A DNA stretch of 64,000 nucleotides from Promethearchaeota archaeon (GCA_048939595.1 JBHLPI010000002.1:13058-77057), one strand, 5' to 3'; positions 4,331 through 34,809 are shown, counted from the first letter of the stretch. The notes: generated by a model not told the origin, from the sequence alone. Translations and numbers: made by a program.

Positions 4331-4560
4331 AAACGGATTATAAATCCTAGTCATACTTTGTGAAGATGTAAGGAAAGCAAGCGTCGGGAGTGGGTTCCAG
4401 AGGAGGAGGAACAATGCGTTTGATCACTTGAACATCAGATTTGAATATCGCCATTAGCATATTGACCTTACCAAGGAGAAAACCATTAGCAAATTTTTCG
4501 TTCCGTTTTTAAGGGCTTTTTGGGATGGAATCAAACTCATGGTGGATATCATAAAATATC

Positions 4561-8264: not shown

Positions 8265-11200
8265 GTGATTGGTCGTCAAGAAAGAGGAGTAATCATCGTG
8301 GTTTGTTTTATAGTGATGATTCTATTACAAGTAGGTTTTTGCCCAAGAATTATTCCTTTGCCTTCTCAGGGTCCAATTGCCCTTCACAAACCTCAAATTT
8401 TAGAATTAAAACCAACTGAATCAGAGAATAGTAAGCAAGAGAAGTTACCCAGCAATAGCAGCTGGATTCCTCTCCTGAGTGGATTTGCTGCTGATTCTCC
8501 GCCGCAGGCATTTGTTACAATAGCCCAACCAGCAAAGCTTCAGATTAAGTCACTCATCCCAGGATTATGGGAATTCCCAGTCAATGTGGGAAAACCACCG
8601 CTACCATTTAACGAACTTCGGATCCCCTTTAGCGGGTTCTTAACTGAAATGGGAAACCCAGAGGTACCTATAATAACCCGTTTAATCGAGGTTCCACTTG
8701 GAGCCGATATTCAAATAACCAAGATTACTTCCGAAGAAGCCATTTATACTAACCTAGTTGTTAGACCCCACCAAGGACCGATATTTGACCATCCCAATTT
8801 CGTTAATCCTCCATTCCAACAAAATAGTACAACCTATTTCCCTGGGATAAGTCAATGGTTTCCTTCAAGGGTTGCCTATCTTTCAGGAAGCCACCATTCG
8901 AATCCGATAGTTATTCGTGGTCACCGTGTTGTAGCGCTTAATATCCTTCCTGTCCAATTCAATGGTGCTACCAATAGTTGTAGAATAATATCTCAAATTA
9001 ACATCGAACTTAGCTTTCAGAATACGCCATTAGCTCCAATAGATACCCGCCTAGTTTCACCCGACTTTGAATCTCTTTTGGAACACACATTATTGAATTA
9101 TCAAACAATCTCTATTCCGTCAGTTCCAACGCCTCTCCAAAAAAATGAACCTATGCAATCATCCAATAGTGCCGATTATCTCATAATCACAACAAACGCT
9201 TTCAAGAGTGCTGTTTTAGAATTAGCAGAGTGGAAACGACAAAAAGGATTCTTTACAAGAATCGTTACTGTTGAAGATGATATATACGAGCCTGCAAGTG
9301 ATACTTATCAAGAAAAGGTTGATGACCTAACTGAGTATATTAAATTCGCTTATGAAAATTGGAGTCCAGCACCAGCCTATGTGCTATTCGTAGGCGACTC
9401 TGATCACATTCCACCTCATTATGGAATGTGGCATGAGATGCATCTAGGAGGCATAGCAACAGATTTACCATACTTTACAGTTGATGGACCAGATTACATT
9501 CCTGATATTCATTATGGTCGTTTGTCTGTGGACACCGTCGCAGATGTCACCAATATAATGAGTAAAATTCAAGACTATGAAAAACAGCCACCTACTGATC
9601 CTAACTTCTATCGAACAATAACCTCACTTGCAGGGGATAGTTTTGAGCATGTTGATACGATGAATTATATCAACGAATATCTCGGCGATTTGGGTATTAC
9701 TCGAAATGAGTTCACTGATGATGACATTCCAGGTATAAAATCAAGTATTGCCGCAGGAAATACTCTAGTGTATTATTATGGTCATGGCGATGCCAATAAT
9801 TACTATGCCTTTCACGGTCCTCAACCTACATTTGACGGCTGGTGGAATCCCCCATTTTATAAAGAGCACTTTGAAGAATTTTCAGTGGGATACCATGAAT
9901 GGCCTCTCGTTCTTAGCTTAGCGTGTAACACTGGATGGTTTGATGGAGAAACTGATATTGAGTCAACCGAAGGTATATACCGAGATTACTATGATGATAC
10001 AAATCCTATTGGGAATGTAAATATCGATGGGTTCTGTGAATTAGCCACACGTTTGGGAAATGATAAGGGGGCTATTGCCGTTGTTGGTTCGACTCGCTGT
10101 TCAGAATTAAAGTCCAACAAATTCTTTCTGCTTGGAATGATTGATGCATTATGGGATGGGTTCAATCAGGAATATTCAGTGGGAAGACACTTGAACCTTG
10201 GTCAAATGATGTGGTACGGTAAGATGATGTGTTTCAGCGCCTTCAATCTGGAATCACCTCTCACACAGTTAGCCTTTGAATTGTACCATCTCTTTGGAGA
10301 TCCAGAATTAACTATCTATACTCAAAAGCCAGATGAGCTTTTGGTTTCATATAATCAACATATCGGTTTTGGTGGACCTCAGTCATTTTGGGTAACCGTT
10401 GCTTCCTCGCAGGATCCTGAGCTCATGGTTCAATCAGCTAAGGTCTGTGTGCATGGTGAAACCGTCCACGAGGTTTTCTATACTAATCGAGATGGAGTAG
10501 CTGAATGCAAGATTACTCCAACCCAAAGCGAGGTACTGACGATTACTGTCACTCACAAAGATTTCATCCCATATCAGAACGAAATAGCTGTGTGTTCACA
10601 AGAAGCATGGATAACAGTCACACCAAAGGATGGGGTGACAAACACACCTCTAATTGTGCATGGTGAGAATTTCAATCCACAAGAAGAAGTAAAAATTGAT
10701 TTCGGAGTGCTCAGAGAACTCTTTACATTCAGTATTCAGGGTTCATCTTTTGACGAGCAGATTTCTGTTCCTTCTGGTACCGCCCCTCAAGAAACTATCG
10801 TGGCCTACCAATCGGATCGGTGCGCCACATTTGCTTTTGGTCGATGGGATAATCGTCCAGATTTAGCGATTTATTCCCAATGGGATGAGTCAACCTGGTA
10901 TCTGAATCCTGTGGGTTCAGGGCAGGATACGAATCCGCGGTGGAATAATCCGTGTATCCGGTTGATGAATATTGGCTCTCCGATTCCTGTCGGTACTTAT
11001 GGAATGGTTCCTATAGGGCGGTATACGATAGAAGCCGATGTGTATAACATCTCTCCCGAAGATGCGCATGGCACGACGGTGCTTTTCGAGTGGAGTCAAT
11101 GGGGAATAGGGCAGACTGAATGGATAAAAATCACAGAATCAATCCCGCTTACAGTGCTTGGAAATGACAAAACGATGTTTTTTGCAGCCTTCACAATTTC

Positions 11201-11741
11201 CGAAGAGATGAATGTGTGCATTCGAGTAACAATTAACCACCCTAATGATTTGAATCCGAACAACAATATTGGAGTTGAGAATTATCAGACTTTGTTCATT
11301 GGACCACGCGCTCACAATACAGGCACAATTAATATCCCATTATACCAAGAAGTTCCTCGTTTGGATTTAAATTGGAGCACTAATCAAAATATTGATACTG
11401 AATGGATTGCTGACCTCTCTCGTCCAGGAGATTCTGAAGGCCCGTCTACTTTGGGAGAACACCCGACATTAGAATTCTTAACACCGGATGATGTTTCTAT
11501 CTCGAATTTCCAACGAACATATGTCATAACAGGTTTTGTTGGGAGAAATATAATTAGTGGCGTTGAGATTACTATATCTCGGGCGAGCCAAGCGCCATAT
11601 GACCCCTTGTATCACATAAGGAACCTTGTTTTATTAAATTGGCCAATTGTGTTACTCATTCTCCTAATACTTATCATTGTAATCCTTTACCTTTGGATTC
11701 GCCGCCGAAAAAAACGGCAGCAGAAGCACACCAAGGATTAG
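8265..11741 (+). CDS. Secreted peptidase C25 (gingipain-like) family protein with C-terminal Ig-like/beta domains and a C-terminal TM plus basic anchor.
   Basis: A GTG start follows a GGAGGG Shine-Dalgarno-like sequence, and an N-terminal signal peptide is present. C25 hallmarks are DYLIITTNAFKSAVLELAEWKRQKGF, YYYGHGDAN and LSLACNTGWFDGE (catalytic His/Cys context). The C terminus reads WPIVLLILLILIIVILYLWIRRRKKRQQK. Confidence 0.7.
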   Translation: MIGRQERGVIIVVCFIVMILLQVGFCPRIIPLPSQGPIALHKPQILELKPTESENSKQEKLPSNSSWIPLLSGFAADSPPQAFVTIAQPAKLQIKSLIPGLWEFPVNVGKPPLPFNELRIPFSGFLTEMGNPEVPIITRLIEVPLGADIQITKITSEEAIYTNLVVRPHQGPIFDHPNFVNPPFQQNSTTYFPGISQWFPSRVAYLSGSHHSNPIVIRGHRVVALNILPVQFNGATNSCRIISQINIELSFQNTPLAPIDTRLVSPDFESLLEHTLLNYQTISIPSVPTPLQKNEPMQSSNSADYLIITTNAFKSAVLELAEWKRQKGFFTRIVTVEDDIYEPASDTYQEKVDDLTEYIKFAYENWSPAPAYVLFVGDSDHIPPHYGMWHEMHLGGIATDLPYFTVDGPDYIPDIHYGRLSVDTVADVTNIMSKIQDYEKQPPTDPNFYRTITSLAGDSFEHVDTMNYINEYLGDLGITRNEFTDDDIPGIKSSIAAGNTLVYYYGHGDANNYYAFHGPQPTFDGWWNPPFYKEHFEEFSVGYHEWPLVLSLACNTGWFDGETDIESTEGIYRDYYDDTNPIGNVNIDGFCELATRLGNDKGAIAVVGSTRCSELKSNKFFLLGMIDALWDGFNQEYSVGRHLNLGQMMWYGKMMCFSAFNLESPLTQLAFELYHLFGDPELTIYTQKPDELLVSYNQHIGFGGPQSFWVTVASSQDPELMVQSAKVCVHGETVHEVFYTNRDGVAECKITPTQSEVLTITVTHKDFIPYQNEIAVCSQEAWITVTPKDGVTNTPLIVHGENFNPQEEVKIDFGVLRELFTFSIQGSSFDEQISVPSGTAPQETIVAYQSDRCATFAFGRWDNRPDLAIYSQWDESTWYLNPVGSGQDTNPRWNNPCIRLMNIGSPIPVGTYGMVPIGRYTIEADVYNISPEDAHGTTVLFEWSQWGIGQTEWIKITESIPLTVLGNDKTMFFAAFTISEEMNVCIRVTINHPNDLNPNNNIGVENYQTLFIGPRAHNTGTINIPLYQEVPRLDLNWSTNQNIDTEWIADLSRPGDSEGPSTLGEHPTLEFLTPDDVSISNFQRTYVITGFVGRNIISGVEITISRASQAPYDPLYHIRNLVLLNWPIVLLILLILIIVILYLWIRRRKKRQQKHTKD

Positions 11742-16516: not shown

Positions 16517-19102
16517 CTACTTGTCAGAGCGCCCTTGATTTAGGATATTATAGATCTGTTCAGCATTTGTAATGCTTGCACCATCGACTTTGATCTCTTT
16601 GGGATGCACCAGAATTGCATGAGTTTGATTGCCTCCTACACCACCATGATTGCCAATTAGTTCTTCATAAGCCGCCACCGAGCCATCAGGGTATACAGGA
16701 CTGACAACTGTAAGGTCCCCTGCACTGGGGAACTCGGCGAGTCGTAAAAGCTGTTTCACACGGATTTCTTCTCGACCATAGGGAAGGAGGGGGTTTGTGC
16801 CATCAACTTCACCAGTTCGTAGTTCTACAGCACCTCCCTTTCCAAGAAGCACGGGACCGCGATTAGCATCGAGGACTATGACAAAGCCGACGCCTTCATG
16901 CGCAACAAGTTTCGATACAAAGCCAGGGACAGTCTTTTCGAAATCTTGTAAAGTAAGACGCGTGTTTTGTGTCTTGAAATAAATTTGGGCGAGGTTACCA
17001 GAGGCACAAACAATCACATCATCGTCTTTCAGATGCTCCCCAGTATCGACTTTGTCTTCCTGTGTCTTGTTCCGATAGAAGTGCCGTAGGGGATTTTTCG
17101 TTCCATTTCCTTCGATTTTCTCTTGCCCAGCATTAAGGTCATCGACCAGTCCACCCACATAGCCAACGTGGGCGTCAATGGCTTCGATTTCTCCGACGGA
17201 AAGTTTTCCTTCGAGGAGGTTAGCTATGAGCTCCTTAAGGGGCATATCATACCGCTGTTTGAAGGTCCAACCCGTGGATTGACCATGATCAGAGAGGATG
17301 AAGAGGTTGTATGGTCGTGGGGCGACATTCTCGATGGCATGCAGAACACGGCGAATTTGTTTATCAAGCCCCCGAAGGGATTTGAGGGCATCGGTGGTCA
17401 TTGGTCCCGAGTGATGAGCAATTTCGTCATACCCAAGGAAGGTCACATAGATCCCGGGAACACCCCGGGTGATATTAGTGATGACCATTGAGGCGGAAAT
17501 GTCGCGCATGAATATATTAGTAGCAGCCCGGACTCCAGGGTAGAATTTGTGCAATCTGTTCAAGCGAGGCTTTCGTCGCATGAGAGTTTGTTTGATGATT
17601 TGCCCAATTTCGACAAGGAGATCCCAAATGGTATAGATAATGCTGCGATTCATAGCCCACGGATTCACAAGGTAGTAGTAGAGGTCTTCACTGCGTCGTT
17701 TGGCTGCTTGAACATCTGGTTCGGAGAGGGTTGACATCGTGAAGAATGAGTAAGTAGCATCTCCGCTAACCAAATTACTCACGCTTGAACCTCCATTGCG
17801 AAGAATGCCTTTCCCATCTGATGCGCGTTTATCGATGAATTGGGCATCTGGTTGATGATTGGAGGTTAGCATGCGATCATCGGTCTTAATATACCAGCGA
17901 AATGCGGGGATATCATCGTTGTTCCCATGAAGGATTCCGGCTTGGCAAGAGGATGTCATAGAAGGAATTCCACAATCCCAGGTATCAAGTTGATGACTCC
18001 CTCGATCCAACAGGTACTGTATCGTAGGCATATACTCTCGTTTCAGGGCTTCCTGAAGGACTTCGATGCTGAGTCCATCGATTTCTAAAGCAACCATTCC
18101 GGGAGTTTGAGGAACGTCTTTAATGTCACCCACCCGTTGGATTTGTGTTGCAACGAATTGACTGAAGAAACTACTATCATCGTCAAGTCCCACGACATTA
18201 ACGATGACGGCATTAATGGCGGCAAAAATTAGTCCCGAAAGAATTGCCGCCCAGATATTGACAACTACAAATCCAGGCATGAAGGCACTTAGAATCCAAA
18301 GCAAGAAGCCGTTTAATATGAACATGAGGATAAAGGAAATAGCGAATCCTATCCACCATCGTGCAACCCATGAGACCATTTTGGTAAAAATGGGGCGGAT
18401 GAGGATATTTAGGAAAGCAATCACGGCAACAACGATGTAGGCGATACCTAGTCCACTCAGGAAATCACCTGTAAAGAGGCCTTGAATTGCGACACCGGGA
18501 TAAAGGGCTGCAGTAACAAGTAAGCTTAGGGCGTTCAGGTTCCAGATAAGGATGAGGCGTCCTATTCGAATAGTTGAATATGGTTGCTGTTCCATTTGCC
18601 AAATGAGGAAAGCCCCTACAAAAAAGACATTGATGGCTAGTACGCCAAAGAATAGACCAAGTGCAAGATCCAATATAATGAGAGGGCCACCCGGTGTGAA
18701 GGGATAAAAAAGTTTGAAGAAGTAGCTGACGACCCCACCGGTGATGGCAAGAATTGATACACCCACGCCCAGAGGAATCGCCCACGGCTTTTTGTAGGCT
18801 GTTCCCAGTGCAACGATCATACCAATGATGGATACAATGATGAGTGTGACTCCAAAAACGAAAAAGAAATTCACTAGTAAAGGCAAGTTGAGTCCAGCAT
18901 TAGCTATCTCGGTTAAGATTAGGTTGTAAAGGATGGGATCATAGACTGCCAGATAATTCAGTTGATCAATCAGATTGACAGGAAGGAGGCTGACAAGGGC
19001 TCCGATTATTGCAAAGGCAAACATGAGCACGAAATCGATGCCTGCAATAGTTCGGACAATGCGAGGAGCTAAGACGACCTCAGGGGTTGTTGATTTGCCC
19101 AT
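16517..19102 (-). CDS. Alkaline-phosphatase-superfamily phosphodiesterase / nucleotide pyrophosphatase domain fused to a large N-terminal polytopic membrane domain.
   Basis: About 330 aa of TM helices are followed by an NPP/type I PDE core (LEIDGLSIEVLQEAL...GIPSMTSSCQAGILHG...ILSDHGQ). Confidence 0.6.
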   Translation of the reverse strand: MGKSTTPEVVLAPRIVRTIAGIDFVLMFAFAIIGALVSLLPVNLIDQLNYLAVYDPILYNLILTEIANAGLNLPLLVNFFFVFGVTLIIVSIIGMIVALGTAYKKPWAIPLGVGVSILAITGGVVSYFFKLFYPFTPGGPLIILDLALGLFFGVLAINVFFVGAFLIWQMEQQPYSTIRIGRLILIWNLNALSLLVTAALYPGVAIQGLFTGDFLSGLGIAYIVVAVIAFLNILIRPIFTKMVSWVARWWIGFAISFILMFILNGFLLWILSAFMPGFVVVNIWAAILSGLIFAAINAVIVNVVGLDDDSSFFSQFVATQIQRVGDIKDVPQTPGMVALEIDGLSIEVLQEALKREYMPTIQYLLDRGSHQLDTWDCGIPSMTSSCQAGILHGNNDDIPAFRWYIKTDDRMLTSNHQPDAQFIDKRASDGKGILRNGGSSVSNLVSGDATYSFFTMSTLSEPDVQAAKRRSEDLYYYLVNPWAMNRSIIYTIWDLLVEIGQIIKQTLMRRKPRLNRLHKFYPGVRAATNIFMRDISASMVITNITRGVPGIYVTFLGYDEIAHHSGPMTTDALKSLRGLDKQIRRVLHAIENVAPRPYNLFILSDHGQSTGWTFKQRYDMPLKELIANLLEGKLSVGEIEAIDAHVGYVGGLVDDLNAGQEKIEGNGTKNPLRHFYRNKTQEDKVDTGEHLKDDDVIVCASGNLAQIYFKTQNTRLTLQDFEKTVPGFVSKLVAHEGVGFVIVLDANRGPVLLGKGGAVELRTGEVDGTNPLLPYGREEIRVKQLLRLAEFPSAGDLTVVSPVYPDGSVAAYEELIGNHGGVGGNQTHAILVHPKEIKVDGASITNAEQIYNILNQGRSDK

Positions 19103-21116: not shown

Positions 21117-21674
21117 CTAATCAGCTTTATCAGCGAAACTGATTCGAAAGACACAATGAGAGGCCCCTTGGAGGCGACTCTCAATTTGGGTAACACGAGC
21201 CACGTAGAGAACCTGAAGATTATCAATCCAATGCTGAAGAAGTCCCTCAAGCATTCCTGAGACAAGTTCGCAATATCGGAGATCCATTTCTGCTTCGAAG
21301 GTATCCTGAGAGCATATTGGGCAAGATTTGGTTCGAAGCAGAAGAGTTCGATCATCGGTAAACTCCATGGAATCCGGTGGAGCACCAGTGGCTAATTTCC
21401 AATTCCGTGCTAGATACTCATCAACACGGTTCAAAAAAAGGTCAGCAGAATTGGGATAGAAATCTTCTTGAGGTTCTCCATAACGAGCTACCAGCCCGAG
21501 TAAAAGAGGTGTTGTCACGGTTTTTCCTAGCGAATGAAGAGCGCGTTCGATTGCGGTAGGGTTACCTGCATGTTCAACAGAAAGAGCTTCGACTAATCGA
21601 AGATAAAAGATTGGCATTAGGGGGCCTGAGAATAGTGGTGGTCTTTCCTGTGTGATTTCATCCTCGGGTGTCAT
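21117..21674 (-). CDS. V4R-domain protein.
   Basis: The C-terminal motif LLLRTKSCPICSQ...EAEMDLRYCELVSGMLEGLL fits the V4R pattern Cp.C......C....G...G. Confidence 0.5.
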   Translation of the reverse strand: MTPEDEITQERPPLFSGPLMPIFYLRLVEALSVEHAGNPTAIERALHSLGKTVTTPLLLGLVARYGEPQEDFYPNSADLFLNRVDEYLARNWKLATGAPPDSMEFTDDRTLLLRTKSCPICSQDTFEAEMDLRYCELVSGMLEGLLQHWIDNLQVLYVARVTQIESRLQGASHCVFRISFADKAD

Positions 21675-21715: not shown

Positions 21716-22963
21716 TTAGTCATTGTTTTCAGAAGCATCATCTTTTTCTTCCGTAGCTTTTTCAGATTTTTCGGGGATTTTCGCCTTCGCCTTTTCCTTG
21801 CGGGGTGTTCTGGCAGGAGCACGCTCACGGAGTTGACGCTCTGCTTCCGCTAACGGACCAGTTGGAATTGTTGCAGGTAAGGTGGGAGCCTGTCCGGTTT
21901 TTTCAGCAATTTCTACAGACTTCTCAGCCCATAATACTTGTGCTGGGTGTACCCCAGCTACACGCCAGTAGAAGAAGCGGTCCCATAGTTTCTCTTCAAT
22001 AGATAATACGCCAGCTGATAGAGACACAAGGTTTAAGCCCAGTCGTTGAAAAGCCTTTGCTACGATTTTCCGGACTTCATCTCGAATTTCTGCTTCATCT
22101 CGTAAAGCGCTCATGAATTCGTGCTCAGAAAACTTATCTCGCATAACATTGTCGATTAGAGTCTTGAGATATTCTACTAGCTCCTGGGAATTCATCGGAA
22201 TACGCTGTTCATGGAGATTTGAAATGAGTTCTCGGGCATCATCGACGACAAAGGCGAAAAGAAGTCCATAAGGTTCCTGGAGCCGAACCGACCGTTGAAA
22301 GATGGTCTTGGCCTCTTTTCCTTCCCCAGTAGTTACTGGTATATCAAATTCTTCTCGGCGCCAGGACTTGCCAGTCCACGTGAGTCGAGCAAGGTCAGAG
22401 GTTTGAGTAACACCAGTATTTGCATAGACATGAACACGTCCAGTGTAGATATAGACAATATTAGTTTTGAACCCTTGTCCTCGCCAGCCTGTCTTAATCA
22501 GAGGTGATGGAAAGGTTTCGATGGTATAGGGAGTTTCGCTGGGTTCCCAAATCTCATATACTTTGAATTCGCGATTGCCGTTATTGAATTCTTCACCATA
22601 TGCACAGCAAAGCCAATCGGGGGGAACATAGATTTTTGCATCTTTTTCAAGGATTTCGATTTGCTCCATATCCCGCTCCAAATCTGGAGGGTGGTAGATA
22701 AAGAGAGGTAGCCGCGAATCTGATTCTTGGATTTCGGTCCCAGATGGGAGCTTGCGAGTTATTGTGTTGCCGGTAGAAAAGCCACCAAAGGCGGCAAGCC
22801 GAGTGAGTCGCCGAAAAGCGCGGATTGCTTGGGCGCCACGATCCTTGTGTGGGGCTTGGATCATTTGTGTCCAATACGTTTGTCCACCAAGGTCACCGAT
22901 AGGTATACTGGGGTTGGGACCAAGATGAGGATCTGGTGCCATTAAACAGATAGTTTTTGCCAC
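21716..22963 (-). CDS. Hypothetical protein of 415 aa with a K/E-rich disordered C-terminal tail.
   Basis: I recognise no family. The middle region is weakly SPFH-like, and the tail is charged (KEKAKAKIPEKSEKATEEKDD). Confidence 0.4.
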   Translation of the reverse strand: MAKTICLMAPDPHLGPNPSIPIGDLGGQTYWTQMIQAPHKDRGAQAIRAFRRLTRLAAFGGFSTGNTITRKLPSGTEIQESDSRLPLFIYHPPDLERDMEQIEILEKDAKIYVPPDWLCCAYGEEFNNGNREFKVYEIWEPSETPYTIETFPSPLIKTGWRGQGFKTNIVYIYTGRVHVYANTGVTQTSDLARLTWTGKSWRREEFDIPVTTGEGKEAKTIFQRSVRLQEPYGLLFAFVVDDARELISNLHEQRIPMNSQELVEYLKTLIDNVMRDKFSEHEFMSALRDEAEIRDEVRKIVAKAFQRLGLNLVSLSAGVLSIEEKLWDRFFYWRVAGVHPAQVLWAEKSVEIAEKTGQAPTLPATIPTGPLAEAERQLRERAPARTPRKEKAKAKIPEKSEKATEEKDDASENND

Positions 22964-23025: not shown

Positions 23026-23874
23026 TCAAAATCCCGTGATTTCATACCGGTCTCCAAGTCGTTCTGCTTTTGATTCCTCCTTACTACGCCAATCTTCGAT
23101 GAATTGTTGGGTTTTGTGTTGAATAACCGAATTGGCGGATTGGGCAATCCAATCCATGGAGATATGCACATGATCTCCACGGAGTACAACAGTTCTTGCC
23201 ACCGCATCATAATACCCCCCTTGCCCCTTTTTCCCTAGGTAGGAGACAAAGGTCGTGAATAACTTTTGAGCCTTATTGTTATAACTTTGTAGCATACTCT
23301 CAGGAACTGCGGTCATTTGTCTAATAATGCGCTTTCCAATGAGGTCATAGATGGCGGTTTCTGTTGTAGATTCATGTTTGACTCCACTTTCTAACAGTGT
23401 GTAGAAGTCAATGGGTCCAGTGAAACAGCTCTTAAAGAAGTCATGGCTGGTTCGCTGAAAATCGAGCAACTCACCTGTTGCCTTAATGTAGATAACCTCT
23501 TGCACACCATCAGAGCGCTCCACAACGAGGCTGATATGTTTCTTCCATTTACTGTAACTTTCTGGATTTTCCTGGAGTTCGGAAAGAAACACCAGAGGTG
23601 CATTGAAGAAGACTTTGCTGTGTTTGAACGCTTTTTCTAATTCGCCCTTATATGCTTCAGTTGGTGGAAGACCTTGAACTTCTGCAACGAATGCAGCTCG
23701 AAAGCTTGTCAGGATGAAATGACCATCCTGACCCTTCACCATCAAAGATTCTCTCCCTGCTCGAACGCCTTTGGCAATTTTAGCTTTTGCAACGAGGAGT
23801 AACGTTTCATCAGCTTTGGGGAGAATGCTTTTTGCAATGGTCAGTTTTTCAGTTGGTTCCAGTTCCCAAGTCAA
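23026..23874 (-). CDS. Hypothetical protein of 282 aa, possibly containing PH-like (bPH/GRAM-type) domains.
   Basis: Two segments resemble the bacterial PH-domain pattern (G.FILTSFRAAFV and TVVLRGDHVHISMDW). The call is weak. Confidence 0.35.
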   Translation of the reverse strand: MTWELEPTEKLTIAKSILPKADETLLLVAKAKIAKGVRAGRESLMVKGQDGHFILTSFRAAFVAEVQGLPPTEAYKGELEKAFKHSKVFFNAPLVFLSELQENPESYSKWKKHISLVVERSDGVQEVIYIKATGELLDFQRTSHDFFKSCFTGPIDFYTLLESGVKHESTTETAIYDLIGKRIIRQMTAVPESMLQSYNNKAQKLFTTFVSYLGKKGQGGYYDAVARTVVLRGDHVHISMDWIAQSANSVIQHKTQQFIEDWRSKEESKAERLGDRYEITGF

Positions 23875-23919: not shown

Positions 23920-26070
23920 TTATTGTCCTAGAAAACGAGCCGCAAACTGAGTGAATTGATCCAATGTTTCCGGGGTTATACTTGGTCCTGTGGATTCAAT
24001 AGCCTCATAGAAATGTGCCATATTGACTCGTGTCGCCTCTAAATTTGTTCGCAGCACGGCCAGAACGGCTTTGCGACAGATGTTTTGGATATCAGCCCCT
24101 GAGAAACCTTCTGTGGCTGAAGCGAGTTGTTCAGTTCTTACATCCTCAGCGAGAGGCATGTTTCGGGTGTGAACCTTAAAGATAGCCTGGCGTGCTGCTT
24201 GGTTGGGGGGTGGTGTGAAAATGAAAATATCGAACCGCCCTGGACGTAAAAGTGCAGTATCAATCATATCAGGACGATTAGTAGCTGCAAGCACGACAAC
24301 GCTTTCGAGTTGTTCCATTCCATCCATTTCTACAAGGAGCTGGTTGACAATACGTTCACTAACGCGACTATCGAATCCAGATCCACGACGTGGTGCTATG
24401 TTGTCTAGTTCATCAATGAAAAGAACCGAGGGAGCAGCCTGCCTGGCGCGGCGAAAGATTTCTGCAATAATTTTTTCCGATTCGCCAACCCATTTGCTCA
24501 TTACTTCAGCGCCTCGAATGCTGATGAAATTCGCTTGACTTTCAGTAGCCACTGCTTTTGCAAGAAGCGTCTTACCAGTTCCTGGGGGGCCAAAGAGCAA
24601 GACACCTTTTGGAGGAGTAATATTGAATCGTTGAAAAATATCAGGGCGATTGATGGGTAATTCTACGGCTTCTCGGAGAGCCTGTTTTGCAGATTCCATT
24701 CCACCTACATCCTCCCAGCGAACCATGGGAATCTCAATGGTAATTTCTCGAAGAGCTGAAGGTTCAACGAGTTGACGTGCATTTTTGAAATCTTCAGCAT
24801 TAACTACAATTTGGTTAATCATATCTGGGGGGACTTGCATATGCGATTCTTCAATTTTGGGTAGCATACGGCGGAGAGCACTTAGAGCAGCTTCCTTCAC
24901 CAGAAAGGCTAAATCGGAACCGACGAAGCCATGCGTTCCTTGGGCAATGCTGTGGAGATTAACGGAATCATCGAGAGGTACACCCCTTGTGTGAACTTTA
25001 AGAATATCATAGCGACCGTGTTGATCAGGAACGGAAATATGAATTTCCCGGTCAAAGCGTCCTGGGCGGCGCAGTGCTGGATCAACTGCGTCTAATCGGT
25101 TGGTAGCTGCAAGGACGAAAACCTGATCCCGATCTTGAAGTCCATCCATGAGAGTAAGTAGTTGGGCTACAATCCGACTTTCCATGCCTCCAGATTCCCG
25201 TCGAGAAGCAATGGCATCAATTTCATCAATGAAGATAATTGCAGGTTTATTTTTTTCAGCCTCTTGAAAGGCATCTCGAAGAAATTTCTCGGATTCCCCA
25301 TAATATTGACTCACTATTTCGGGACCATTGATAGCACGGAAGAATGCTTCGCTTTCAGTAGCCACCGTCTTAGCGAGAAGTGTTTTGCCACAACCCGGTG
25401 GTCCGTGGAGAAGTACCCCACGAGGAGCTTGGATTTTTAATCGAGCAAAGAGTTCGGGATGACGTATTGGGAGCTCGACAATTTCTCTAATACGAGAAAT
25501 TGCTTCATCAAGACCCCCCACATCATCATAGGTAACGGTTGCAATAGGAGTAACCTCTTCAGGAGCTTCTTTGTGCAGTTGTAGATCTGTATTTGTACTA
25601 ACGACTACATTTCCAGCAGGAACTGTTTTGGCAACATAGAACTTGGCTTCACCTAATGCGAACGCAGCTCGCCCTACGGCGATGATTATATCTTTCTTAA
25701 CTGGTTTATCAAGAAGGTTGGTTTTCAGTAGTGCTGTGGCTAGCTCTTGGCGGTAATTGATTTCTTCACCCTTAAGCGGGGTTAATATCACAGTGCGTGC
25801 AGGTTGAGCCTCAGTTTTTTGCACGGTTACGATATCTCCGATTCGAACGCCAGCATTCAGTCGAGTTAACCCGTCCATCTTTATGACGTTCTGGTTCTGG
25901 AGGGTGGCATCGCGGATTGCTTTTGCGCACACACTTTTTTTCCCGACTATCTCGAGGAGAGACTCATCTGCGAGTTGGAGTTGGTCTAACACATTAGGAT
26001 CTAATCGGACTGTGAATCGTCCCACATCAACAGCACTTGCTTCGGCAACTCGTACAGATGCTACACTCAT
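23920..26070 (-). CDS. cdc48: CDC48/VCP-like AAA+ ATPase with two AAA domains.
   Basis: A CDC48 N-domain is present (VRLDPNVLDQL). Two Walker A motifs are GPPGCGKTLLAKTVA and GPPGTGKTLLAKAVA, with second-region-of-homology motifs. The start is probably MSVASVRVAEA at 26070; the ORF track extends it to 26103. Confidence 0.9.
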   Translation of the reverse strand: MSVASVRVAEASAVDVGRFTVRLDPNVLDQLQLADESLLEIVGKKSVCAKAIRDATLQNQNVIKMDGLTRLNAGVRIGDIVTVQKTEAQPARTVILTPLKGEEINYRQELATALLKTNLLDKPVKKDIIIAVGRAAFALGEAKFYVAKTVPAGNVVVSTNTDLQLHKEAPEEVTPIATVTYDDVGGLDEAISRIREIVELPIRHPELFARLKIQAPRGVLLHGPPGCGKTLLAKTVATESEAFFRAINGPEIVSQYYGESEKFLRDAFQEAEKNKPAIIFIDEIDAIASRRESGGMESRIVAQLLTLMDGLQDRDQVFVLAATNRLDAVDPALRRPGRFDREIHISVPDQHGRYDILKVHTRGVPLDDSVNLHSIAQGTHGFVGSDLAFLVKEAALSALRRMLPKIEESHMQVPPDMINQIVVNAEDFKNARQLVEPSALREITIEIPMVRWEDVGGMESAKQALREAVELPINRPDIFQRFNITPPKGVLLFGPPGTGKTLLAKAVATESQANFISIRGAEVMSKWVGESEKIIAEIFRRARQAAPSVLFIDELDNIAPRRGSGFDSRVSERIVNQLLVEMDGMEQLESVVVLAATNRPDMIDTALLRPGRFDIFIFTPPPNQAARQAIFKVHTRNMPLAEDVRTEQLASATEGFSGADIQNICRKAVLAVLRTNLEATRVNMAHFYEAIESTGPSITPETLDQFTQFAARFLGQ

Positions 26071-26162
26071 TTTAGCCACACACCAATGAGACCATAGCTT
26101 CAAGGTTTCTTGGTATTACCCACGCGAGTAGCATATTTAACTCCGGCGCCTGATAGGGGAAT

Positions 26163-27053
26163 ATGGGTCGAAATACTATGTCTGCCACAAAACCGCCTGC
26201 AATCCTCTTTGATGTAGGTCATAATGAAGAATTGACCCTTGTAGAACCTGAATTAGCATTTTTAGCTCAGCTTTTGGAAGCGAATGGATTTGCCCTTTCC
26301 ACAGATACTACTTCTCTTTCAAGTGATGAGTTATCACAGTATCAGGTTGTTGTTGTGGGCAATCCGTTTAAATCCAAATTGAACTCAGATGAAATCTCAG
26401 CCTTACGCTCCTATGTTGAAGTAGGTCGGGGCTTGCTTTTGGTAAGTGGCGCGACGATTTTTGGAAAAGGAGGTGATATAGCACGAAGTACTAATCTCAA
26501 TGATCTGGCAAGATTGTTTGGATTTGAATTTTCAAATAAATCTCTTGAGCCGCCACCTGAGGGCGAAGGGGATTTTTTTCATGCGGTTCCAGCAGGGAAC
26601 CATCCCGTACTTGCAGGCGTTGGTTCTTTGATATTAAGTTCAGGGACCACTCTTGTTGCGGAGGACGCAGACACTCATCTCTTTCGAGTATCAAGCAGTC
26701 TAGGAGCTCCTACCATTGCTATTGCGACAAGTTTCAAAAAAGGACGGGTTGCTGCCTTTGGTGGAGGAACCTTCTTTTTCAATGACTACATTGCAGCAGG
26801 GGATCACGAAAAATTTATCGTGCAGCTTTTTCGGTGGCTTGCTGGTGAGCCGATTGATTTACCAGTTCAAAAAGTTACCAAAGCATCAGCTATAATGGAT
26901 GAAGTGACAGCGACTGAAGCAATCGAGGAATTACGAGAACAACTTGATAAAATCGAAGACGAGTTGTCTAGCTTGAAAGAGGTTATCCATTCGAGTATCA
27001 AAGAAATGGAAAAAATGGTCCGAGAATTACAAGATAAAGATAAGGAGACTTAA
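26163..27053 (+). CDS. DUF4350/GldG-N-like (class I GATase-like fold) protein with a C-terminal coiled coil.
   Basis: The stretch LFDVGHNE...VVVVGNPFKS...LLLVSGA resembles the ABC-type uncharacterized transport system domain. The C terminus is heptad-rich (EELREQLDKIEDELSSLKEVIHSSIKEMEKMVRELQ). Confidence 0.45.
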   Translation: MGRNTMSATKPPAILFDVGHNEELTLVEPELAFLAQLLEANGFALSTDTTSLSSDELSQYQVVVVGNPFKSKLNSDEISALRSYVEVGRGLLLVSGATIFGKGGDIARSTNLNDLARLFGFEFSNKSLEPPPEGEGDFFHAVPAGNHPVLAGVGSLILSSGTTLVAEDADTHLFRVSSSLGAPTIAIATSFKKGRVAAFGGGTFFFNDYIAAGDHEKFIVQLFRWLAGEPIDLPVQKVTKASAIMDEVTATEAIEELREQLDKIEDELSSLKEVIHSSIKEMEKMVRELQDKDKET

Positions 27054-27709
27054 GTTGGTGCAACAAGCTGTTCAATTCTTATTCGCCGTTCTAGTTCCAC
27101 GGCGCCATAGGTTTGAAGTCTGAAATAGTCAAGCACAACTTGGAACACAGGTTGATGTAATTTCTCTGCAAGGTCATTAATGGACTTTTGGCCATCAATA
27201 GCTTCTAAGAGTAGATGATACTTCTCGGGCACTTGGGATTTGGGAACTGTGTGTACACGTACAGGAACATAACGGTCAGCTATGGCAAATGGACGAAAGA
27301 GTAAATCTATCTGTGGTAGGATATGCCGAAAATGGCTTAAATCACCCAGCCAATTTTCTAAAAGCTTACCATGCTCTCGTTCCATAATCGAAATGAGGGC
27401 ACGCATGCGTTCACGAATTGCAGCTAGATCATGAGTGGAGAATACAGCGACATAGATGTTCTTTCCGTATTCTAAGAGGATTTTGACATCTTCACGGTCG
27501 ATGATGCGGAGTCGTCCATTCTCGCGTTCTAGGGTTCGTAATTGTTGTCTATTCTCTGAGATACGGCCAACTAGGTCAGAAAGAAACATACTTACAGCTG
27601 AAAGGAATCCAGTGACAAGATCGGGTTCCATATTTTCGATTTGAAAATCTTTTTGGAGAAGGGTTCGACCATCACGATATACGACATAGAGACTATAGAG
27701 CTGGGCCAT
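27050..27709 (-). CDS. Roadblock/LC7 (MglB-like) domain protein with a C-terminal probable winged helix.
   Basis: The sequence MAQLYSLYVVYRDGRTLLQKDF...LVTGFLSAVSMFLSDL fits the Roadblock pattern. It overlaps the convergent gene by 4 nt. Confidence 0.5.
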   Translation of the reverse strand: MAQLYSLYVVYRDGRTLLQKDFQIENMEPDLVTGFLSAVSMFLSDLVGRISENRQQLRTLERENGRLRIIDREDVKILLEYGKNIYVAVFSTHDLAAIRERMRALISIMEREHGKLLENWLGDLSHFRHILPQIDLLFRPFAIADRYVPVRVHTVPKSQVPEKYHLLLEAIDGQKSINDLAEKLHQPVFQVVLDYFRLQTYGAVELERRIRIEQLVAPT

Positions 27710-27771
27710 TCACATTCAACCTTTTGTGATAATTCTCTGATGGTTTGGGGGGAGAAAAGCTTTCCGAGACC

Positions 27772-30348
27772 TTACTGAACTCGTTGAGCAATTCGATGGA
27801 TTTCACTAATGATTTCAGTTGGGGAAGCGAATTCTGTTCCAAGATAGGTTCGGCCCCCTGTTATATAGGCCATGTAGAAGGCTAGGAAAGGGATGAGTTT
27901 ATCATCTCGAATTCCGATTTCAATGTAATTTGAAACGCTTAATTCCTGAGCGCGTTTTCGAGCCCAGTCCATAAAAACGTCATGATGTTTCTTCTGTTTC
28001 ACAGGGAAAAATTCGTGATGTAAATTGATGGTAACTAAAGGAATCCGATCATTGCCCAGAAGATGGCATTGATGGAGAACATCTGCAATAGCTTCAGGTA
28101 GCCCGATATCTGGTGTATCAGAGTTTCTCAGTTGAATATTAGGTAGAAAATCACTGAATACGATAACGATGGGGAGTGTGCCAGGATTTCGACGCCGTTC
28201 TCGTTTGATGGTTTCATGGGCCCGTTTTAGCCCTGCTGCTAATGGCGTATACCCAGATAGACGGAGTGTCATAAATTTCGCTACAAGGCGTGTCCAGTTG
28301 GTTGTTGGTGCTTGGACTTCTACTGCCCCCCAGTCCTTTAACGCAATGAGCCCTACTCGGTCGCGAGTGCCCTCCAAACAGGTCTTGAAGGCAATTAGGG
28401 AGAGTTGAAGCTTATCGATGCTTTTGAGCATTGAAATACTCAGATCAACGACAAAGATAATTGTCAGGGGTGTCCGGCTTTGAAATCGTTTTTCTCGTAC
28501 ATCAGTGGGATTGATGTGAACTCGAGGAACTTCGAGGATTGTCGGGTTAGAGTGAAGTGCTGCAGCCTTAATTGTAGCGGGTATGTGAATGTTGCGAGGA
28601 GAGCCTTGAGGGAGTCCGGATCCTAAGAGGACACCGCCTTCGGATTGCCGTGATTGTAATGAGCCTGCGCGTCGGCCAACTTGACGTATTGACCATTTAG
28701 GAGCTCGTTGGCGTCCGAAGTATTTAGGTTCAAGGAAGTCTTTGAAATCAAATAGTGGTTTTCCTTCTTTCATGCGAATGAGAGAGGATCCTGACACGGG
28801 CTTCCCTGAGACAGATGGTTGGGAAGAACTCTGAACGGCTTTGGGTGATGTGGTACTTGTTGCTGGAGGGGCTGTGGAATCTCCCCGGTGTTTTGCCCGT
28901 TTATACCGACCCTTGTCGTCGGGCGGTTGTTTACCTTGGGAGAGAGCAGGCATCACAGAGCCAGGTCGACGTTGATATCGGTAGATCCGTTCGAGTAGAA
29001 TTACCAATCCCGCTGCAATCAATCCACCTACAACAAAGTTGAAGGGAGGGGGAACGGGCATTATGAGTCCGAGTGCAGCTGCTATTACCATGAAAAAACA
29101 AACAAATCCGGTATAAGAACAACGACCAGCAGCGCCTTTTCTAGGCGGGGTTCCGAAAAAACGTTCGCCATCCTGACTGCTGTCCAAAGGATGGTATTGC
29201 TTGAATTTTCGTGTGAGTTTTTGGTGCTCATCCTTTGTAAAGGGGTCTTTATCCTTGGACTGGGGAGTCTGAGTCTTGACTTTCTTTTTAGCTTCCTTCA
29301 TGATATTTTGAATCTCTTCACCTGTTGGTGGTTCGAGAATTCCACGTTGACGGGTTCGATGGCTGAGAGCCAGAGGGGCTACTATTTCTACATCTTCAGG
29401 TGTAACACTAGTACGTCCATCAAAGGCGGCAAACGCCATAGCTGTTTTGGCGATTACGATATCGGGACGAGCACCATCAACTTGGAGCTGAGTGGTTAAC
29501 TGAGCAATGAGTTCCATTATCTCCTCAGATAGTTCTATTGTCTTCATTTGCTCTCGTGCAGCTGTAATTTCGCCCCTGAGCTTCTCCTCCTGCGATGCCC
29601 ATTTCTTTTGGAGGCTTTGAGGATCGCGTTCAAAATCGATATTCAACTGAATGATTTCAACTCGTTCCGCAATGGTGAACGGGCGTTGGATTGCCACATG
29701 AAGGGGAAACCGATCTAAGAGTTGGGGACGGAGTTCTCCTTCTTCCGGGTTCATGGAGCCAATAAATATGAACCGTGAGGGGTGGCTAACGGAGATGCCT
29801 TCCCTTTCGACGACATTTACTCCTGTTGCTGCAGCATCAAGGAGTGAATCAACAATATGATCGGGAAGTAGATTTACTTCATCGACATAAAGGATGTTTT
29901 GATTTGCATCAGCAAGAATTCCTGGTTTGAGCGCGGCTTCGCCTTCACGGATAGCCCGCTCAACATCTAGGCTGCCCACAACACGGTCTTCTGTGGCACT
30001 TAATGGAAGGTTGACGACACGCATTTTTTGTTTGATGGTTGTCAGTTTCTTATTTTTTTCAAGTTTCTCAGTACAAGACGAACAAAGACCAAAAACATCG
30101 TCAGGAGCACACCGAAATTGGCAGCCTTTGACAATGGGAATTTCGGGAAGGAGGGCCGCAAGTGATCGAACAACAGTAGTTTTCCCAGTCCCTTTGGGTC
30201 CAGTTATCAGAAGCCCGCCAATGCCGGGATTAATGGCATTGAGTAACAGTGCTAGCTTCAATTCATCATGATTGACAAAAGCTGTGAATGGGAGAACACT
30301 GCGTAGGCTAGTATTTACTTCCGGAACCAAGCGAGGAACCTCTACCAC
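27772..30348 (-). CDS. Fused ChlI/BchI-like AAA+ ATPase, two TM helices, and a ChlD/BchD-like vWA domain (Mg-chelatase-like architecture, membrane-inserted).
   Basis: The ATPase part has a Walker A ([20 protein letters not shown]), the ChlI-type Zn-ribbon insert (CQFRCAPDD...CSSC) and a sensor region. A Pro/Ser-rich linker follows. The hydrophobic segments are [18 protein letters not shown] and [15 protein letters not shown]. The vWA domain carries the MIDAS motif DLSISM (DxSxS). Confidence 0.75.
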
Positions 30349-33001: not shown

Positions 33002-33773
33002 CAAAAACTTGGCACACACCAAATCGAAGAACATTGAACACAAACGTGCTGTGAGTCTAGCGTTTGGATCAATAGCATCCAGTTACGATTCTTGGTACCA
33101 GACAGCCATTGGCAAATATGTCTGGTTTGTGGAAACACAAGCACTTCAAGCCTTGTACCCGACTACCCCTTATCATGTAGCTTTGGAGATAGGGGTGGGC
33201 ACCGGTAAGGCGATCTCGCTGATTGGGGATACACACTCTCAACTCATAGGAATTGATATTGCCTGGCAGATGCTTGCAATTGCCTATGGCAAGTTTGCGA
33301 AATTTGATAATATACAGTTAGTGCTTGCAGATGGAACCAGCTTACCTTTTCGAAATGAATGCTGTGACATTACCTTGAGTATGACCGTGTTGGAATTTGT
33401 TAACAACAGAGATGGGTTTGTCCAAGAAATTTATCGGTGTTTAAGGACTGCAGGAGATTTGCTATTAGGAGTTCTTACTTCACTTAATTTGTGGGCCGTC
33501 GATCGACAAATTCGTAGCTGGATTCAACACGATGTGTTTGAACTCGCTAGCTTTCCAAATCCTTGGCAAGTTGTTCGGCGATTGTCTCGAAATGGTTTCA
33601 CCCAAATTCGATATCGGGGAGCAGTCTATGCTCCTTCATTTTTACCTGAAAAATGCTTCCCGTTTATTTCTAGGTTTGAGGCTAAACTGGGTAATCGGTG
33701 GCCGACTCGTGCAGTTGGTGCATTTACGGTGTTTAGTGCAAAACGGGGTGGACTTAAGTCAGACGATCTGTGA
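32994..33773 (+). CDS. Class I SAM-dependent methyltransferase.
   Basis: Motif I is LEIGVGTGK, followed by a post-I acidic residue, giving a Methyltransf_11-like layout. Confidence 0.75.
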   Translation: MSDKNLAHTKSKNIEHKRAVSLAFGSIASSYDSWYQTAIGKYVWFVETQALQALYPTTPYHVALEIGVGTGKAISLIGDTHSQLIGIDIAWQMLAIAYGKFAKFDNIQLVLADGTSLPFRNECCDITLSMTVLEFVNNRDGFVQEIYRCLRTAGDLLLGVLTSLNLWAVDRQIRSWIQHDVFELASFPNPWQVVRRLSRNGFTQIRYRGAVYAPSFLPEKCFPFISRFEAKLGNRWPTRAVGAFTVFSAKRGGLKSDDL

Positions 33774-34809
33774 AGCGTTTATAGGGATCTTCTCCGGGTT
33801 TAAGGCGCTGGGTTTTCCCTTCTGATGCAATCCGAATCTGTTTCTTCTTCGTGATTTTTCCAATTATTGCAGCTTTTCGTCCATGTTGACGAATGGTTTC
33901 GATTATCCCATTGGCCGACTCATTGTGTGTGACAATAAGGAAAGTTCCAAATGATGAGCAATAAAGCGGATTCCAGCCCAAGTAGTTAAAGAGCAAGCTA
34001 CTGGGTTCATCCCAAGGAATTTCACCACACTGTACAACCATTCCTAATCCAGTGGCTTGTTGAAGTTCAAATAGTGCAGTGGCTAATCCCCCTTCAGCGA
34101 TGTCGTGAAGTAAGACGATTTGCTCGCGGGGAAGAGATTGGACTATTGGGACCACACGGAAAGGGCTTAGGTCATTAGCTAAGGCTATACGCTGTGAGCG
34201 GGGGAAGACGGTATCCACAGTTGCGGGTTCGATGTTGGCCAGAAACCATATGGTTTCCCGACCGATAGGACCAACAGCTACTATGACATCTTCCGGTCTT
34301 ATGTTGGATTCATGGCCTGGTAAATCAGAGAGTATTCCAAAACAGGTTGTAGCAATAAGAGGGGCTTGGAGTCCATCGTATCCACCAGTATGTCCCCCGA
34401 TAACTTTGAGATTAAGTTCTTGAGCTTCATGTCCAAGCTGTTTCATGGTTGCAGTAAGCCATTTCTCACCAGTGTTGGGTGGATAATAGATACCCAAAGA
34501 AAGGTACTGGGGAGTAGCCCACGCCATTGCGACATCGGTGGCTGAGTAGTGAACTGCGAAGAACCCATAGAAGTGGAGTGGTATACCCAACACGGGATCT
34601 GAGGCAACAACCACATTTCCAGTAATAGGAGCAGCACCGTAATCTAGAAGCACAGAACGAGAATCAGTAACACGAGGAAGGTAGGGGAACACGAGGCGTT
34701 CTAGGTCGGATAGCTTAAGTTTGCCCTTAGGAAGAGTCACTATGGTTACCTCAGATGAAAGAACAACATAGCAGGTTATAATGGATACGGTTCTTAGTCC
34801 TGAATTCAT
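33754..34809 (-). CDS. PurM-superfamily protein (AIR-synthase-related; ThiL/HypE/marker-protein-2-like).
   Basis: The ORF shows a PurM N/C two-domain pattern (DYGAAPI...VVVASDPV...HF and GGHTGGYDG). The precise member cannot be assigned. Confidence 0.5.
   Translation of the reverse strand: MNSGLRTVSIITCYVVLSSEVTIVTLPKGKLKLSDLERLVFPYLPRVTDSRSVLLDYGAAPITGNVVVASDPVLGIPLHFYGFFAVHYSATDVAMAWATPQYLSLGIYYPPNTGEKWLTATMKQLGHEAQELNLKVIGGHTGGYDGLQAPLIATTCFGILSDLPGHESNIRPEDVIVAVGPIGRETIWFLANIEPATVDTVFPRSQRIALANDLSPFRVVPIVQSLPREQIVLLHDIAEGGLATALFELQQATGLGMVVQCGEIPWDEPSSLLFNYLGWNPLYCSSFGTFLIVTHNESANGIIETIRQHGRKAAIIGKITKKKQIRIASEGKTQRLKPGEDPYKRFTDRLT

Follow-up and report, generated by a model that had tools for sequence, protein, structure and literature searches.

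What might a ChlI-ChlD motor be doing when it appears to be anchored in the membrane and has no chelatase large subunit encoded beside it? This question is raised by a 64,000-nucleotide (nt) stretch of DNA from a Promethearchaeota archaeon (GCA_048939595.1, JBHLPI010000002.1:13058-77057; hereafter the window). At 27772-30348 on the minus strand it contains a gene, with a GTG start, for an 858-amino-acid (aa) ChlI-ChlD fusion that is predicted to be membrane anchored and that we will refer to as ChlID-TM. An earlier reading of this DNA, made from the sequence alone (here the sequence-only reading), had proposed that ChlID-TM forms a membrane-associated machine with two neighbors and is not a chelatase. 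Our analysis upholds the membrane association and the lack of a chelatase partner nearby, and it speaks against a machine shared with the neighbors. We give about even credence to the view that ChlID-TM is a membrane-tethered remodeler, built from an AAA+ ATPase and a metal ion-dependent adhesion site (MIDAS), and that the adjoining gene cassette is separate from it and not obligatory.

The N-terminal part of ChlID-TM is a ChlI-type AAA+ module with its lid (residues 14-352; 29293-30309, minus strand), delimited by a match to ChlI in the Protein Data Bank (PDB) and by an alignment of 53 sequences. Synechocystis/cyanobacterial ChlI (PDB 6l8d) aligned with the module over its full length (E = 2e-93, 317 bits), as did 8osf, and the Pfam family Mg_chelatase (PF01078) gave a domain match of 40.7, above its cutoff of 20.3. 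The best match among NCBIfam models was TIGR02442, "putative cobaltochelatase," at 547.5 bits; TIGR02030 (ChlI/BchI) scored 393.9 bits, and neither score reached its curated cutoff (779.45 for TIGR02442, and the equivalog cutoff of 466.95 for TIGR02030). Across 53 aligned archaeal homologs, Walker A (G50-T57), Walker B (D156 and E157), N200, R207, R213, and R294 are all invariant. By position relative to the ChlI/BchI motifs, N200 would correspond to sensor 1, R207 to the arginine finger, and R294 to sensor 2. By its motifs, ChlID-TM would be competent as an ATPase, and the complete ChlI/BchI-type module proposed earlier was borne out by hidden Markov models (HMMs), PDB matches, and invariant catalytic motifs. 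The bpMoxR model matched ChlID-TM at only 24.5 bits, under its cutoff of 27, and a Pfam scan gave no AAA_3 match to the protein, so that by sequence the module is clearly classed as ChlI/BchI-type, not MoxR.

Within this module lies a four-cysteine insert, C76-x3-C80-x8-C89-x2-C92 (30073-30123, minus strand, from the alignment). None of the four varies among the 53 aligned fusions from archaea, whether soluble or membrane anchored, and the cyanobacterial ChlI sequences, as aligned, have no cysteine at the insert position. The insert had been described as characteristic of ChlI/BchI; it is indeed present, but since cyanobacterial ChlI, as aligned, lacks all four cysteines, it is not characteristic of classical ChlI and is instead specific to archaeal ChlID fusions. 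It is possible that it forms a Zn or Fe-S site.

The feature that sets the question is a two-helix hydrophobic hairpin (residues 412-453; 28990-29115, minus strand), which was recognized by hydropathy, alignment, and AlphaFold2 (AF2) modeling. Its two segments, residues 412-431 and 437-453, reach 19-residue Kyte-Doolittle (KD) means of 2.47 and 2.0, respectively, and their position-independent Hessa sums are approximately -1.2 and +3.1 kcal/mol. The segments are linked by VPPPF, with a PVPPP turn, and the flanks carry 4 and 5 K/R residues. With the 53-sequence alignment, AF2 placed helices at 406-429 and 436-458 with a pLDDT of about 70, isolated between disordered stretches. Both globular domains are well modeled, and pLDDT falls below 50 at residues 361-405, 459-522, and 543-623. 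The two hydrophobic helices that had been seen between the AAA+ and von Willebrand factor A (vWA) domains are therefore present, and in the model they lie in the inter-domain linker and not in a domain core, as buried, non-transmembrane (non-TM) helices would.

We next consider how this hairpin is distributed, using the 120 best matches to ChlID-TM as the set of homologs. A hydrophobic segment at approximately residues 400-455 is found in 28 of the 28 closest homologs (39-92% identity; one is a fragment), all from Promethearchaeota/Hermodarchaeota metagenome-assembled genomes (MAGs). It is absent from the next ~90, which are soluble archaeal ChlID fusions of ~800 aa from Bathyarchaeia-type MAGs, ~41% identical, with the PF26791 "AAPxQ" family on record. 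Within the clade at ≥58% identity, conservation of the hairpin extends beyond mere hydrophobicity to individual residues, as GER..R(C/L)SYTGFVCF...P..P.NF..GG..A.G....LER...PGSVMPAL. When the linker and hairpin were used as a query against 1.84 billion representatives, a single one aligned across the hairpin, and the module is therefore clade restricted at the sequence level. A hairpin conserved throughout a clade and missing from soluble ChlIDs argues for membrane anchoring. Taken with its linker position in the model, this makes anchoring of ChlID-TM by the inserted hairpin a well-supported prediction, in line with the membrane association first proposed.

The hairpin is also not the only one of its kind. 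P0218, another 858-aa ChlID, which the same search of representatives brought up, has in the corresponding part of its linker a hairpin (KD 2.81) whose sequence is unrelated, and a third version occurs in P0028 (39% identity). These versions indicate that a membrane anchor in ChlID originated or diverged in several lineages of archaea, at least two of which would have gained their hairpins independently.

Some further observations concern the same region of the protein. Opposite residues ~405-460, the soluble homologs P0030, P0038, and P0107 have a short basic/hydrophobic segment (e.g., YFLKLNRLFGGVVFGSGKRL) that has a GG motif in common with the hairpin; this segment may be the hairpin's precursor and may form an amphipathic helix that binds membranes. 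Two shorter proteins, P0214 and P0215 (604 and 477 aa), have a TM segment ~100 residues N-terminal to the vWA domain; one retains only the AAA lid, and the other has no AAA+ module. The P0218 gene lies beside a Bmp/ABC transporter in its loci (L022/L023).

Following the hairpin is a Ser/Pro/Arg/Lys-rich linker, predicted to be disordered from its composition and from AF2 (residues 459-625; 28474-28974, minus strand), much as the Pro/Ser/basic linker had been described. Its residues 471-625 are basic, with 28 K+R versus 11 D+E. At the C-terminal end of the linker stands a degenerate version (AAALHS) of the ChlD-type "AAPxQ" pre-vWA motif, and PF26791 is only weak or faint in the clade members P0016 and P0021. 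ChlD and BchD are soluble proteins whose linker is acidic and Pro-rich, and the basic linker and hairpin of ChlID-TM are in this respect unlike theirs. The C terminus is a ChlD-type vWA domain (residues 628-858; 27775-28467, minus strand) identified by Pfam, alignment, and AF2. As had been proposed, its MIDAS is intact: D635-x-S637-x-S639, T701, and D733 are complete and invariant in the 53 archaeal homologs. The ChlD/BchD model TIGR02031 scored 284.5, under its cutoff of 499.55.

Is there a chelatase for this motor to serve? Neither the 64-kb window nor loci L001-L023 yielded any CobN/ChlH or B12 genes; these loci represent ~12 distinct neighborhoods and include those of soluble relatives. 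In the window, the scan for CobN/ChlH concerned the sole open reading frame (ORF) longer than 1,000 aa, at 8265-11741 on the plus strand, which encodes a 1,158-aa Peptidase_C25 (gingipain-type) protein with a propeptide; CobN in the window was ruled out on this basis. The description of ChlID-TM as a gene without a chelatase large-subunit partner thus stands for the window and for these ~12 neighborhoods. The survey points to a large family of orphan archaeal ChlID fusions with no large-subunit neighbor in the loci inspected. Some archaeal genomes that have only the anaerobic B12 pathway are already on record as carrying chlD genes whose function is unclear (PMC9227772), which speaks against a classical chelatase role.

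How might a membrane-tethered remodeler of this kind work? In Mg- and Co-chelatase I/D subunits, NorQ/NorD, and CbbQ/CbbO, a MIDAS binds the client and ATP hydrolysis drives its remodeling. The hairpin of ChlID-TM is flanked by positive charge at either end, and its Pro-rich turn is only 5 residues long and uncharged; it would therefore place both domains in the cytoplasm, and it could take the form of a tight transmembrane hairpin or of a monotopic, "proline-knot"-like wedge. On the inner face of the membrane, the AAA+ modules would assemble into a ring like that of ChlI/BchI. The MIDAS would then bind an acidic residue of the client, and ATP hydrolysis would remodel that client. Because the motor is predicted to be membrane bound and no CobN/ChlH is encoded nearby, we favor as its client some protein or complex that is associated with the membrane and encoded elsewhere, over an H subunit loaded with a tetrapyrrole.

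Several points weigh against this interpretation. The second hydrophobic segment alone is only marginally hydrophobic, and membrane insertion is predicted from hydropathy and AF2. The full-length alignment with ChlI (317 bits) and a "putative cobaltochelatase" model as best match both fit a chelatase role. The search for CobN/ChlH covered the window and the loci, so a distant partner is possible, and no client was identified. Finally, the members of the 219-aa and GIFT families described below all directly adjoin ChlID-TM where their neighborhoods were inspected, which leaves room for a functional link.

The most durable of the alternatives, one we consider possible if somewhat unlikely, is that ChlID-TM is a conventional class I chelatase motor, with small and medium subunits fused and CobN/ChlH encoded elsewhere, that serves in Co, Ni, or Mg insertion, for example in cobalamin salvage. 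Here the hairpin would only localize the motor, near a metal or corrinoid transporter. This would explain why TIGR02442 is the best NCBIfam match and why the AAA+ module matches cyanobacterial ChlI so closely. The order of AAA+ module, linker, AAPxQ-like motif, and MIDAS-bearing vWA domain is also that of the ChlD/ChlID architecture. Yet the TIGR02442 score falls short of the model's cutoff. The model's rationale also includes proximity to cobN or B12 genes, which is not the case here or in the ~12 neighborhoods. The known I and D subunits are, moreover, soluble. In Haloferax, chlID does lie next to cobN (PMC8305020). De novo B12 synthesis, however, is reported to be absent from most Asgard lineages, Tyrarchaeota being the only one to have it among the lineages reported up to then (10.1101/2021.04.02.438162, a preprint).

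Comparison with known relatives sharpens this picture. The Haloferax HVO_B0050-type ChlID and other TIGR02442 proteins share with ChlID-TM the fused, intact ChlI AAA+ module, the long linker, the pre-vWA motif, and the MIDAS-bearing vWA domain, whereas ChlID-TM differs in its hairpin, its degenerate AAALHS, its basic Ser/Pro linker, and the lack of cobN or B12 genes nearby. The soluble ~800-aa archaeal orphan ChlIDs (~41% identity over ~89% of the length) have the same four-Cys insert, catalytic motifs, and MIDAS; they have the short basic segment with a GG motif in place of the hairpin, and like ChlID-TM they have no neighboring CobN in the loci inspected (L011 and L012). With the Mg-chelatase subunits ChlI/BchI and ChlD/BchD, ChlID-TM has in common the full-length AAA+ match and the ChlD-type vWA/MIDAS; in contrast, its I and D parts are fused and predicted to be membrane anchored, it has no ChlH gene in its vicinity, and its host does not carry out photosynthesis. 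The membrane hairpin, the basic linker, the degenerate AAPxQ motif, and the lack of a cobN context together set ChlID-TM apart from the known ChlID family. Our literature search found no description of a membrane-hairpin ChlID variant.

We now turn to the neighbors, with which ChlID-TM had been proposed to form one machine. Between ChlID-TM and an aldehyde:ferredoxin oxidoreductase (AFOR) gene are six genes, here called the cassette. The three ORFs first described are placed as before, with the 219-aa and 296-aa genes convergent and overlapping by 4 nt. NCBI holds identical proteins under the locus tags ACFFCH_00635 and ACFFCH_00640.

The first cassette gene (27050-27709, minus strand) encodes a 219-aa protein that had been read as Roadblock/LC7 plus winged helix. 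The winged helix stands, as AF2 models it confidently at the C terminus. The Roadblock part does not: no Roadblock match to the 219-aa protein appeared even at E ≤ 10, neither a Robl_LC7 HMM match nor the a-bb-a-bbb order as best match was obtained, and the N-terminal domain instead has the order bb-a-bbb-a-a with longin structures as its best match. We therefore rule out Roadblock/LC7 for this domain and regard it as longin-like, with the caveat that the model is of low quality (pLDDT 39-58). Pfam, NCBIfam, and PDB profile searches with the domain were all blank.

The second cassette gene (26163-27053, plus strand) encodes a 296-aa protein with a GIFT/DUF4350 domain and a coiled coil. Its probable start is Met6 at nt 26178 (291 aa), a residue that hardly varies in the family and from which NCBI also begins the protein. 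The protein matches both IFT52_GIFT (PF23355; 43.9 bits, cutoff 27.2) and DUF4350 (PF14258; 31.4 bits, cutoff 30.4), and a profile of the family against the PDB gave significant matches only to IFT52 structures (6e-11 to 2e-9). Its last ~55 residues match coiled-coil proteins. There is no hydrophobic segment (maximum KD, 1.54), and this, together with the IFT52_GIFT match, suggests a cytosolic GIFT-coiled-coil protein. The earlier description as DUF4350-like with a coiled coil thus holds, with the refinement that the best match is IFT52 and that the protein is probably cytosolic. Our literature search found no paper pairing IFT52 with Asgard archaea. Both the 219-aa and the GIFT families are small and clade restricted, with 51 and 41 clusters, respectively.

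The remaining four genes are all on the minus strand. The third (23920-26103) encodes a 727-aa Cdc48/p97 paralog in which Pfam recognizes CDC48_N and two AAA domains, and the fourth (23026-23874) encodes a 282-aa protein for which Pfam, NCBIfam, and PDB profile searches were blank. As an impression only, its N-terminal GQDGHFILTSFRAAFV resembles the G-x-L-x-LT-x-x-R-L-x-F of GRAM/GLUE/bacterial PH domains. The fifth (21716-22963) encodes a 415-aa protein without TM segments that has a partial SPFH/Band_7 match (residues 235-316). It is the most conserved of the cassette genes (71-93% identity), and its N-terminal half was blank in Pfam, NCBIfam, and PDB profile searches. The sixth (21117-21674) encodes a 185-aa TRAPPC3/V4R-like protein whose profile gave a full-length match to Thorarchaeota TRAPPC3 (7yh3; E = 4.3e-5), followed by yeast Bet3 at E ~1; the Pfam matches to TRAPP (0.017) and V4R (0.02) were both sub-cutoff. 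Four cysteines of this protein, C118, C121, C135, and C174, are invariant and resemble the Zn site described for Thor-TRAPPC3, a Zn-binding Cys4 TRAPPC3/V4R fold having been described in Asgard archaea by Tran et al. 2024 (PMC10933270).

Do these genes and ChlID-TM form one system? Such a system would be a membrane-remodeling or trafficking-like one and the Asgard counterpart of the arCOG01314 (DUF4350)-MoxR-vWA systems. ChlID-TM would act as an anchored ATPase/adaptor whose MIDAS recruits the GIFT protein and a longin/TRAPPC3-like platform, with Cdc48 and the SPFH-like protein at the same site. Gene order offers one argument. In 13 fetched loci, in which ChlID is 61-92% identical, the order is the same throughout: ChlID, longin-winged helix, GIFT, Cdc48, 282-aa protein, SPFH-like, TRAPPC3-like, and AFOR. 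The ChlID and longin genes are co-directional and 62-123 nt apart across loci, and the 219-aa and GIFT genes lie beside ChlID-TM in every locus fetched. The same loci, however, equally keep unrelated flanks (POR, EamA, AIRS, methyltransferase, ThiN, ECF, Macro, DinB, and AFOR), and the conservation is therefore one of general synteny.

In addition, the cassette comes and goes. The six intervening genes are missing in L003/L004 (P0016, 64%), L020 (P0015, 65%), and L021 (P0021, 62%), at least three lineages in which ChlID-TM is kept. These loci retain Macro and AFOR, and also DinB except in L021, where the ChlID gene directly adjoins AFOR. On a neighbor-joining tree, on which several cassette assignments are indirect, the cassette-less lineages are not monophyletic, so loss or gain of all six genes together has happened on more than one occasion. 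P0026 branches earliest in the clade at ≥58% identity, and a cassette status could be assigned to it only indirectly; a metagenome scan with P0026 returned only a bacterial bchI-bchD locus, L024. Distant TM-bearing ChlIDs (L005/L006 and L022/L023) have no cassette and lie in unrelated contexts, and both cassette and CobN are missing around the soluble relatives in L011 and L012. The neighborhood is thus conserved in the 13 loci and not in others. The cassette behaves as one module from which ChlID-TM is separable, and we infer that it was inserted or retained between ChlID and the AFOR gene in part of the clade and is not an obligatory partner.

The spacer between ChlID and the longin gene points in the same direction. 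Downstream of the ChlID stop, ~45-50 nt 5' of the longin ATG, is an A/T box similar to AAAGCTT(T/A)(T/A)TC (27754-27763, minus strand) that is kept even in divergent loci whose spacers cannot otherwise be aligned (AAAGCTTTTC, AAAGCTTATC, and AAAGCTTAATC). This conservation hints, weakly, at a separate promoter for the longin gene and counts against a single system. A similar box, AAAGCTTTTG, occurs in the ChlID/DinB spacer. The motif AAAGCTTWWH is not enriched across the window (2 observed versus 2.9 expected), and it was dropped as a general promoter motif. A TATA-like TTCTATAA stands ~25 nt 5' of the ChlID-TM start.

The published association of DUF4350, AAA+, and vWA proteins (PMC5898192) is the other point in favor of a single system, and the occurrence of that triad here does lend something to the sequence-only reading. 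The arCOG01314 systems described there consist of a MoxR ATPase, a secreted Ig-vWA protein, and a DUF4350 protein that bears a signal peptide and is anchored by a C-terminal TM segment. The locus shares with them a DUF4350/GIFT gene in the neighborhood, but only the three domain types co-occur here: the GIFT protein has neither signal peptide nor TM anchor nor any hydrophobic segment, the vWA domain is fused and predicted to be cytoplasmic, and the ATPase is ChlI-type. More broadly, NorQ/NorD, CbbQ/CbbO, CoxD/CoxE, RavA/ViaA, and arCOG01314 systems share with ChlID-TM the logic of an AAA+ ring and a MIDAS adaptor, often with a membrane complex as client, while ChlID-TM differs from the MoxR-type pairs in its ChlI lineage and in the fusion of ATPase and vWA. 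On this evidence, ChlID-TM, DUF4350, and "Roadblock" as one machine is a weak proposal, and we regard a single system of ChlID-TM and cassette as unlikely.

A bolder version of the same idea is less probable still. In it, the seven genes would form an Asgard-specific endomembrane-like module, with ChlID-TM as a MIDAS tether, the GIFT protein, the longin and TRAPPC3-like proteins as a "proto-TRAPP," a dedicated Cdc48, and an SPFH-like scaffold. The longin-like fold of the 219-aa protein and the four conserved cysteines of the 185-aa protein, with its 7yh3 match, resemble features of known Asgard longin and TRAPPC3/V4R proteins (PMC10933270); in this cassette, however, the longin domain carries a fused winged helix, and its gene is clustered with a TRAPPC3-like one. 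Asgard longin, TRAPPC3/V4R, and Roadblock genes are reported as a rule not to share operons with genes for small GTPases (PMC10933270), and among the cassette genes none for a small GTPase was identified. If such a module did exist, it would mean that trafficking-type folds are genomically linked in a prokaryote.

A MoxR-vWA/VMAP-type NTP-dependent conflict or defense system is a highly improbable explanation: AAA+/vWA pairs do occur in such systems and bpMoxR matches weakly, but that match is sub-cutoff, PADLOC gave only generic AAA+ matches (E ≥ 1e-4), on which the earlier hint of a conflict system fails, no effector, nuclease, protease, or beta-propeller partners are present, and the region is a stable, syntenic, housekeeping one without repeats, integrase, tRNA, or a shift in composition. 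GC content is 38-48% in 2-kb bins, with composition ordinary throughout the window; the window contains no tRNA, and the cassette flanks are without repeats or marks of mobile elements. A mobile island was likewise ruled out (no flanking repeats, tRNA, RNA families, or GC shift).

Other genes around ChlID and its relatives are recorded here as observations. On the minus strand, an 861-aa protein (16517-19102) fuses a 4-TM "Phage_holin_4_2" domain to a type I phosphodiesterase/nucleotide pyrophosphatase; its gene is also found beside AFOR in L003 and L020, with a truncated copy in L021. An uncharacterized PurM-superfamily (HypE/ThiL-like) gene (33754-34809, minus strand) lies five genes from ChlID-TM in the window clade, and a copy in the otherwise unrelated context of L005 (10798-11841) lies immediately downstream of the ChlID gene; the two are only 26% identical. 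In L011, the soluble ChlID is beside a purE-purC-purP-purM-purF cluster, in which the copy is a true PurM. A link between ChlID and AIR-synthase-family genes is not firm, given the 26% identity and the HypE/ThiL-like versus true PurM assignments. L005 also has a Snf7 (ESCRT-III) gene (4124-4783) ~3 kb 5' of the gene for the distant TM-bearing ChlID P0028, which is probably coincidental.

What would a membrane-tethered ChlID mean? ChlI/ChlD motors are held to be soluble parts of tetrapyrrole chelatases, and anchored orphan ChlIDs suggest that these motors have been re-used, probably at the membrane. "Mg-chelatase" annotations in Asgard and Bathyarchaeia genomes should therefore be treated with caution as evidence for chlorophyll or B12 chemistry. 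The cassette itself may be a more interesting object than ChlID-TM: by linking longin, TRAPPC3-like, and IFT52-like GIFT proteins, it offers a concrete set of genes for interaction tests relevant to eukaryogenesis.

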